Shown here: positions 17,198-17,569 of the stretch, piece after piece
Layout: each line of letters opens with the position of its first letter
Position numbering within the stretch: position 1 is the first letter of the stretch
DNA from: a virus
Taxonomy: Duplodnaviria > Heunggongvirae > Uroviricota > Caudoviricetes
IMG/VR virus record: IMGVR_UViG_2939147180_000005
Coordinates: 1-38,436 of that record
Length of the DNA stretch: 38,436 nucleotides
Direction: 5' to 3' (one strand)
The notes under the pieces: generated by a model
Seen by the model: only the letters and a program-made list of their open reading frames with translations
Told to the model about the DNA's origin: nothing
Databases searched by the model: none
Made by a program: the position numbers and the translations under genes

Positions 17198-17272
17198 TGG
17201 AGCGGGTAGCGGGAATCGAACCCGCATCATCAGCTTGGAAGGCTGAGGTAATAACCATTATACGATACCCGC
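17198..17272 (-). tRNA. tRNA-Gly (anticodon UCC)
   Basis: Reverse complement GCGGGTATCGTATAATGGTTATTACCTCAGCCTTCCAAGCTGATGATGCGGGTTCGATTCCCGCTACCCGCTCCA: 7-bp acceptor stem, TTCGATT T-loop, CTTCCAA anticodon loop, encoded CCA. Confidence 0.9.
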
Positions 17273-17275
17273 ATA

Positions 17276-17351
17276 TGGTGCCGACTACCGGAATCGAACT
17301 GGTGACCTACTGATTACAAGTCAGTTGCTCTACCTACTGAGCTAAGTCGGC
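17276..17351 (-). tRNA. tRNA-Thr (anticodon UGU)
   Basis: Reverse complement GCCGACTTAGCTCAGTAGGTAGAGCAACTGACTTGTAATCAGTAGGTCACCAGTTCGATTCCGGTAGTCGGCACCA: canonical cloverleaf, CTTGTAA anticodon loop, CCA end. Confidence 0.9.
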
Positions 17352-17569
17352 ACAGAACCGCCACCGAGGTATCGAATCTCACACCTACCACTTAAATGAT
17401 GGTCGGCTCTTCCCGATGAGCAGATGGCGGTGTTCCCTTAATGGGATAGCTGTATTCAGTAATCCGTTATTCGAATACACCATCGAAGGAACAAGCGCAT
17501 TATATACATTCACGATTCGTGTTATTAGCTAATTGCGCACAACACAGCTTCATTTAACGAAATGCCCCC

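Follow-up and report, generated by a model that had tools for sequence, protein, structure and literature searches.

A lambdoid prophage may carry tRNA genes between its late antiterminator gene Q and its lysis genes, and the stretch of viral DNA analysed here (the window, 38,436 nucleotides) raises the question of what the third of three closely spaced tRNA-like sequences in this interval represents: a working tRNA gene, a gene in decay, a tRNA-shaped RNA retained without decoding, or a fortuitous resemblance. We addressed this question by analysing the genomic setting of the interval, its two neighbouring tRNA genes, the homologues of the third element (hereafter el3) in other prophages and phages, and the alleles of el3 within its own lineage. 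The element in the window is largely ordinary: it is a degenerate copy, new and so far unannotated, from a phage tRNA family that is already known, and it stands at a known position. For this window little changes beyond one probable tRNA pseudogene that the annotation of the Rac-type prophage lacks. The part worth following up is the pattern of anticodon-loop variation at the level of the family.

Genomic setting and the intact tRNA genes

The window comprises a complete lambdoid prophage of E. coli, of the Rac type, with integration adjoining ttcA. In the RefSeq annotation of an identical prophage in strain 13P484A, the genes intR, xisR, ralR, recET, kilR, hokD, DUF1367 and DUF1364 are followed by DUF1133, tRNA-Thr, tRNA-Gly, essD, rrrD, rzoD and trkG, and then by the terminase, capsid and tail genes. 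The features of the tRNA interval are collected in Table 1. Upstream of the tRNA cluster, the Q-like gene product matches the Pfam family DUF1133 with 359 bits and Phage_antitermQ marginally, with 26.3 bits vs the cutoff of 26, and its homologue in phage 683R6 is annotated as 'antitermination protein Q'. The terminator-like hairpin that follows this gene has comparable counterparts in the annotation of 933W, and the P21-type holin, lysozyme and Rz genes are located downstream of the cluster. The location between Q and the lysis genes, which had been proposed from the open reading frames, is therefore upheld. The accompanying remark that tRNA genes are frequent at this place in lambdoid phages agrees with the 933W annotation and with published data on the lambdoid phages 21, SfI, Sf6 and ST64T, which have tRNA genes downstream of Q (PMC3636060) and, like the window, a tRNA-Thr(UGU) gene just after it.

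Table 1. Features of the tRNA interval and its flanks, in window coordinates
Feature	Position	Strand	Basis or remark
Lysis cassette: P21-type holin (essD), lysozyme (rrrD), Rz/Rz1	15338..16604	minus	Pfam; RefSeq annotation of identical prophage
tRNA-Gly(UCC), intact, encoded CCA	17198..17272	minus	ARAGORN; RF00005 67.8 bits; alignment to K-12 glyT
tRNA-Thr(UGU), intact, encoded CCA	17276..17351	minus	ARAGORN; RF00005 73.8 bits; alignment to K-12 thrU
el3, full-length degenerate argN-type phage tRNA gene, loop CAUUUAA	17354..17430	minus	Family model R1; homologues called tRNA-Lys
el4, 61-nt structured element, closing stem GUUCCUU/AAGGGAAC	17432..17492	minus	Fold z -3.95
Perfect TATAAT box, weak -35	17499..17504	minus	Sequence; position of putative 933W tRNA promoter pT
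Intrinsic-terminator-like hairpin and U tract (tR'-like)	17579..17604	minus	Between Q-like gene and tRNA cluster
Q-like late antiterminator gene (DUF1133)	17685..18347	minus	Pfam; upstream of tRNA cluster

Several further features were observed in the surrounding DNA. A minus-strand ORF at 16768-17178, between tRNA-Gly and the holin gene, has no Pfam match; its homologue is a hypothetical protein of about 103 aa, and terminator-like hairpins are found at 17100-17079 and 16922-16904, inside or after this ORF. The sok/hokD toxin-antitoxin RNA and the RalA antitoxin RNA are encoded at 19836-20011 and 36702-36880, respectively. An 853-aa ORF (20445-23006) between an IS-disrupted region and hokD is named 'restriction endonuclease' in the annotation of the identical prophage.

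When applied to the whole 38-kb window, ARAGORN reported exactly two tRNA genes, which lie 3 nt apart on the minus strand and specify Thr(UGU) and Gly(UCC). The Rfam tRNA model RF00005, with a gathering score of 29 bits, supports the same two genes (scores in Table 1), and thus the two canonical, CCA-encoding tRNAs of the original prediction are confirmed by two methods. The tRNA-Thr gene is identical to K-12 thrU over the entire alignment (76/76 positions). The tRNA-Gly gene corresponds to the host glyT gene with three changes, all of them outside the anticodon arm: C6U and G67A, which together convert the C6-G67 pair of the acceptor stem into a compensated U6-A67 pair, and one C-to-U change in the D-loop. 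Nearly all complete E. coli genomes match both genes through their own thrU-tyrU-glyT-thrT operon. The identity of the Thr gene to thrU and the closeness of the Gly gene to glyT suggest a recent capture from this host operon, or gene conversion with it.

For codon usage, 32 long ORFs of the window were set against 40 ORFs, called in the same way, from a 50-kb core region of the K-12 genome. The codons read by the two intact tRNAs are each enriched about 2.8-fold in the prophage, as the share of ACA among Thr codons is 0.286 in the window vs 0.103 in the K-12 core, and the share of GGA among Gly codons is 0.229 vs 0.081. An ACA codon bias has also been reported for phage SfI (PMC3636060). The most likely role of tRNA-Thr(UGU) and tRNA-Gly(UCC) is thus to top up the decoders of ACA and GGA during late gene expression. 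Other codons are enriched as well, including AGA (0.169 of Arg codons vs 0.027) and ATA (0.219 of Ile codons vs 0.043). The latter weakens the codon-supply argument, because ATA is enriched 5-fold and yet the prophage has no intact ileZ gene for tRNA-Ile2. The AAA share of Lys codons is not enriched (0.726 in the window vs 0.742 in the K-12 core, p 0.56), and hence there is no codon-supply rationale for a Lys(UUU) gene.

Phage tRNAs can also counteract tRNA-targeting defence systems. P2 OLD and the AriB nuclease of PARIS cleave the host tRNA-Thr(UGU), and OLD in addition depletes tRNA-Gly(UCC), which makes prophage tRNA clusters natural candidates for anti-defence tRNAs of temperate phages; if this is true, such use of tRNAs would not be limited to T4- or T5-like phages. 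Resistant phage tRNAs have changes in the anticodon stem. We considered and rejected the tRNA-Thr of the window as a nuclease-resistant variant, since it is identical to host ThrU, the target of P2 OLD and AriB, and keeps both the paired CNG motif (CUG/CAG) and the AriB site. A role in resistance is made unlikely by this identity and by the observation that over-expressed E. coli tRNA-Thr(UGU) does not rescue from OLD (bioRxiv 10.64898/2026.07.10.737580).

The third element and the argN-type tRNA family

The sequence of el3, read on the minus strand from 17430 to 17354, is CCGCCAUCUGCUCAUCGGGAAGAGCCGACCAUCAUUUAAGUGGUAGGUGUGAGAUUCGAUACCUCGGUGGCGGUUCU. A tRNA-like element was predicted correctly at this place, but its limits had to be moved from 17352-17437 to those given in Table 1. 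The 7-bp acceptor helix likewise exists, in a register one base off the proposed ACCGCCA/TGGCGGT: homology to the family described below defines it as CCGCCAU/GUGGCGG (17430-17424 with 17364-17358), followed by the discriminator base U73. The remaining peculiarities noted from the sequence are all present, namely the T-loop UUCGAUA (DNA TTCGATA), the 7-nt anticodon loop CAUUUAA (DNA CATTTAA), an imperfect T stem with A53 opposite C61, an irregular junction with two nucleotides between the D and anticodon stems (position 26), and the triplet UCU (DNA TCT) after the discriminator base in place of CCA. The anticodon is UUU, preceded by A at position 33.

Measured against the canonical cloverleaf (stems of 7/4/5/5 bp, a 7-nt anticodon loop and a single nucleotide at position 26), el3 forms 20 of 21 pairs, A53 opposite C61 being the exception, and has the 7-nt loop, but its D/anticodon junction has 2 nt. 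The minimum-energy fold is cloverleaf-like with a non-canonical T arm of 6 bp and an 8-nt loop (-28.2 kcal/mol, z -2.0). Canonical tRNAs conserve U8, A14, G18G19, U33, a purine at position 37, the G53:C61 pair and T54-Psi55-C56, and E. coli tRNA genes encode the 3' CCA as a rule. From this set, el3 keeps A14, GG (18-19), A37 and TTC (54-56), and is altered at three positions, with C for U8, A for U33 and A for G53. El3 gave no match to RF00005 at E<=10, even in searches of 601 and 156 nt, and ARAGORN reported neither the window allele, with A53, nor the allele of the same lineage with G53, while it accepts other tRNA genes with the CAUUUAA loop.

Because the generic tRNA models gave no match, a family-specific model was needed to establish homology. 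We built a covariance model (R1) from 17 members of the argN-type family of phage tRNA genes that represent other lineages, including argN itself and excluding the lineage of the window. R1 matches el3 end to end over model positions 1-78 with 68.1 bits (E 2e-17), and the next best non-tRNA match of R1 in the 38-kb window reaches 9.3 bits. The full length of the match and its E-value make the homology of el3 to the argN-type family secure. Dozens of argN-type relatives were found by scanning viral contigs with the conserved 3' part of the gene. They have in common the acceptor helix CCGCCA(C/U)/(G/A)UGGCGG, a D arm of the form UAGCUCA..GGA.AGAGC, the T arm and the encoded CCA, and among deposited phage genomes the family is mostly represented by argN of Stx phages. 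The alignment of 33 distinct members has 93% of the cloverleaf paired, with compensatory changes in four of the five anticodon-stem pairs. As seen from this alignment and from the pair counts, el3 possesses the acceptor helix and the conserved D and T arms of the family. Like other argN-type genes, which usually stand directly after an ileZ-type gene, it is found in the late region behind Q and a terminator, here without an intact ileZ.

The best-annotated relative, the ileZ-argN-argO cluster of 933W, has the same position, after Q, pR' and terminators and before late or lysis genes. The body of its argN is common to el3 in the acceptor strand CCGCCAU, the D arm UAGCUCAUCGGGA.AGAGC, the T arm and the length, and an ileZ-type gene immediately precedes the el3 homologue in related prophages just as ileZ precedes argN in 933W. 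The 933W gene differs from el3 by its canonical loop CUUCGAA (Arg UCG), its encoded CCA and its score of 54.8 bits on RF00005, and it is followed by argO and stx, whereas el3 is followed by copies of thrU and glyT. The Arg anticodon UCG is absent from el3, which is a member of the argN-type family by descent and not an argN orthologue by function. The literature searched for ileZ, argN and argO contained no discussion of argN variation, an absence that is no proof of novelty.

Closer relatives are present at the same locus in the prophage of strain eco-241 and in phage PhiR47_1, where both PGAP and ARAGORN call a series of tRNA-Ile/Met(CAU), Lys(UUU), Thr and Gly genes. The el3 sequence aligns to the tRNA-Lys(UUU) gene of this cluster, which has the same position, the same Thr and Gly genes behind it and the same anticodon. 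Neither gene has U at position 33, which is C in the eco-241-type loop (CCUUUAA) and A in el3. Unlike el3, the eco-241-type tRNA-Lys retains CCA, U8 and A9, and RF00005 gives it 44.4 bits. It is present in 798 of 5426 complete E. coli genomes, whereas the allele of the window type occurs, unannotated, in about 40, E. coli 13P484A and ATCC 8739 among them.

Family members with an encoded CCA have the CAUUUAA loop too, in no fewer than three other genomic contexts, and are tRNA-Lys(UUU) genes according to ARAGORN. The suggestion that the third element is possibly a Lys(UUU) gene is thus in line with the calls made both for the homologue at the same position and for these relatives. Since the identical loop is carried by CCA-bearing genes, the loop with A33 was inherited and did not arise through decay of this lineage's copy. 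A pattern scan for the CAUUUAA subtype on one-genome-per-species contigs gave 0 matches and so was uninformative about other species, and the broader pattern AGAGCCGATNACCAT, applied to viral contigs, gave 107 matches to unrelated sequence and no new family members.

Probable decay of the third element and competing explanations

We consider el3 most likely, with a probability of roughly three in four, to be a pseudogene within a phage tRNA operon that still supplies decoders for Thr and Gly. This reading follows from the rejection of el3 by tRNA predictors, from the loss of CCA, U8, A9 and the G53:C61 pair, and from the existence of alleles with internal deletions. In the family, U8 and A9 vary little or not at all; the lineage of the window has C8/U9 there, and UCU in place of CCA. 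Among the 33 aligned family sequences, CCA is otherwise missing only in the divergent members L123 and L025, and all of the 33 except the window allele have a standard 53:61 pair. The responsible change, G53A, is derived, as most other copies of the lineage keep G53. The scores on R1 form a descending series, from 87-100 bits for intact members to 74.5 bits for the G53 allele, 68.1 bits for the window allele, 46 bits for an allele with an 8-nt deletion and 26.9 bits for an allele with a 25-nt deletion. The 8-nt deletion, found in seven genomes, removes the 5' strand of the T stem, and the 25-nt deletion removes the D arm and half of the anticodon stem. In 17 other copies of the lineage, el3 has accumulated one polymorphism and these two independent internal deletions; the Thr and Gly genes of the same copies, twice as long, have a single wobble-preserving SNP and an IS3 insertion. 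Together with the rejection by both predictors and the loss of family-invariant features, the deletion alleles bear out the earlier description of the element as a decayed or atypical tRNA. Against this reading, el3 still has its full length and a cloverleaf-like fold, and alleles without a deletion are the most frequent ones among the 40 genomes that carry the lineage. The anticodon stem of el3 differs from those of its relatives by compensatory changes and, since its loop is moreover identical to that of CCA-bearing relatives, the element was under structural selection until fairly recently.

The same signs of past selection are what an unlikely alternative builds on, according to which el3 is a working, although atypical, tRNA-Lys(UUU) that decodes AAA and AAG and survives the tRNA-Lys-directed nucleases PARIS AriB and PrrC. 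It would be matured by the RNase P cut at the 5' end of tRNA-Thr, by trimming of the trailer and by addition of CCA by the host enzyme. The missing CCA need not be fatal in E. coli, where the host CCA-adding enzyme matures the CCA-less tRNAs of T4. The full length of el3, its cloverleaf-like fold, its conserved CAUUUAA loop, its compensatory anticodon-stem changes and the calls of ARAGORN for CCA-bearing relatives with the same loop as tRNA-Lys all fit this alternative, under which survival would be due to an anticodon arm that differs from that of host tRNA-Lys. For AriB, the site U36-A-A-U-C|A41 is required and a change of U39 abolishes cleavage (PMC12409363). At the corresponding positions 36-41 el3 reads U-A-A-G-U-G, i.e. 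an altered recognition and cleavage site, which is a feature of the sequence only. Phage tRNA-Lys genes are known to rescue infection from PARIS and PrrC170: the tRNA-Lys(UUU) of T5 (anti-PARIS) and of SP15 (anti-PrrC170) differ from the host tRNA in the anticodon arm at the AriB site, as el3 does. However, these tRNAs are canonical, expressed and experimentally rescuing, whereas el3 is degenerate, and the likeness points to a possible ancestral role only.

Several properties of el3 argue against a working tRNA-Lys. A33, C8, U9, A53/C61, the extra nucleotide at position 26 and U73 are all non-canonical, and ARAGORN and RF00005 both reject the element. Lysyl-tRNA synthetase recognises the discriminator A73, so that the identity elements of tRNA-Lys are a UUU anticodon in a standard loop together with A73; el3 has the UUU anticodon, but combined with A33 and with U73 in place of A73. 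The window allele has in addition acquired the derived G53A change, and the persistence of the 8-nt and 25-nt deletion alleles in several genomes indicates that the gene is dispensable.

It is quite improbable that el3 is kept as a non-decoding, tRNA-shaped RNA, either as a decoy for nucleases or modification enzymes or as a folded spacer that aids processing of tRNA-Thr. Such a function would accord with the non-canonical branches of the family, in which a conserved body carries a hypervariable anticodon loop, and non-productive complexes between phage tRNAs and defence effectors have been raised by the authors of PMC12409363. In the sole direct test available, however, phage tRNA-Thr supplemented the tRNA pool and did not inhibit OLD (bioRxiv 10.64898/2026.07.10.737580). 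The body itself is being lost in the lineage of the window, through deletions of the D arm or of a T-stem strand, and tRNA-Thr is still annotated as intact next to the el3 deletion alleles, so that el3 is not needed for Thr. A chance tRNA-like sequence or an integration scar, e.g. a duplicated 3' half of a tRNA gene, would explain the silence of the generic predictors and has a negligible probability, both being ruled out by the end-to-end match to R1, the full length of el3 and its position inside the late region, far from the prophage ends.

The probable ancestral operon and anticodon-loop variation in the family

Upstream of el3, the structured element el4 occupies the place of ileZ (tRNA-Ile2, anticodon CAU) in related prophages, and its closing stem persists in the diverged A10 copy. 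Its similarity to tRNA genes is weak but specific to ileZ (z 2.65, 32 of 3000 shuffles, with z<=0.7 for other tRNAs), and no match to el4 was found in Rfam. The element may be a remnant of ileZ, a reading for which the similarity is suggestive only, or possibly a structured leader of the tRNA operon. The TATAAT box coincides in position with the putative 933W promoter pT; a sigma-70 consensus scan reported no promoter upstream of the cluster, and by analogy with the 933W annotation an operon-internal promoter may be located at this box. In E. coli UMNF18 (locus L008, 1-1000), a tyrosine integrase gene adjoins an ileZ that lacks its 5' half, a sign that the phage-borne ileZ may have served as integration site for another mobile element.

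On the most likely reading, the interval forms the 3' portion of a phage operon of tRNA genes, placed after the Q-like gene and its terminator and before the holin, lysozyme and Rz genes. As the position and the 933W annotation suggest, this operon would be transcribed within the late transcript that depends on Q, with its own TATAAT promoter as a possible second source, and the tRNAs would then be cut out of the transcript by host processing enzymes. The third element descends from the branch of the argN-type family with the CAUUUAA loop (UUU for Lys, A33) and is decaying in the Rac lineage, where it is probably still co-transcribed and would no longer yield a usable tRNA. The ancestral operon appears to have had four genes, Ile2-Lys-Thr-Gly, and the only two that are intact now are those with a codon-usage rationale.

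In enterobacterial temperate phages, the argN-type body carries a variety of anticodon loops. Canonical loops have the Arg anticodons UCG and UCU, loops with C33 or A33 have UUU, UAU, UUG and UUA, and loop lengths of 5, 6 and 8 nt also occur. Almost every copy retains CCA and has its stems intact. In some 15% of complete E. coli genomes there is a prophage 'tRNA-Lys' from this family with a non-U33 loop. Among the sampled copies of the eco-241-type gene, those with at most 97.4% identity (96-97%, H123-H128) are unannotated by RefSeq, and therefore a sizeable share of the 798 copies may also be degenerate.

Two non-canonical branches were distinguished in viral contigs, a short-loop branch (loci L013, L072 and L046) and an A33 branch (L022, L122, L126, L055 and L009), both of which keep CCA and intact stems. 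The A33 branch has the loops CAUUUAA, CAUAUAA, CAUUGCC/U and CAUUAUU as well as 8-nt variants, and three short-loop alleles differ at one loop base only (UAAAU, UUAAU and UGAAU). RF00005 gave no match to members of the A33 branch or to the one short-loop member tested (L013), and an A33 member in Yersinia phage YeP1 is annotated as 'tRNA-Pseudo-TTG'. Counted as minimum changes per alignment column, the A33 branch has 1.50 in the anticodon loop and 0.31 in the other columns; the corresponding values are 0.88 and 0.13 in the short-loop branch and 0.50 and 0.38 in the canonical branch. The anticodon loop of the non-canonical branches is thus about 5-7 times more variable per column than the rest of the gene.

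Such concentration of changes in the loop is not what uniform decay predicts, and could have its cause in anticodon switching or in selection by tRNA-targeting nucleases. The argN-type body may serve as a phage 'cassette' with fast turnover of the anticodon loop and conservation of the rest, a reading that we consider rather unlikely. Were this turnover adaptive, the genes would act as replacement tRNAs or decoys that evolve against PARIS, PrrC, OLD and their relatives, and el3 of the window would be one that this arms race has left behind.

Two members of the family, at positions 1351-1428 of locus L126 and 2404-2481 of locus L005, are called 'tRNA-Stop' by ARAGORN, with the anticodon UUA that would read UAA; the latter, from E. 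coli A10, has a compensated acceptor-stem change (CCGUCAC/GUGACGG). The same A10 locus contains a more decayed copy of the tRNA cluster (L005, 1604-1797), in which both el3 and tRNA-Thr have internal deletions and the anticodon loop of the glyT-derived gene has changed from CUUCCAA to CUUUCAG, an apparent anticodon shift, the gene being annotated as tRNA-Glu(UUC). Insertions of IS elements are recurrent in this interval, with IS1 between Q and the tRNAs in 13P484A (L004, 3104-3801), IS3 inside tRNA-Thr in ET210 (L142, about 625-986) and IS4 after Q in A10 (L005, 308-1340).
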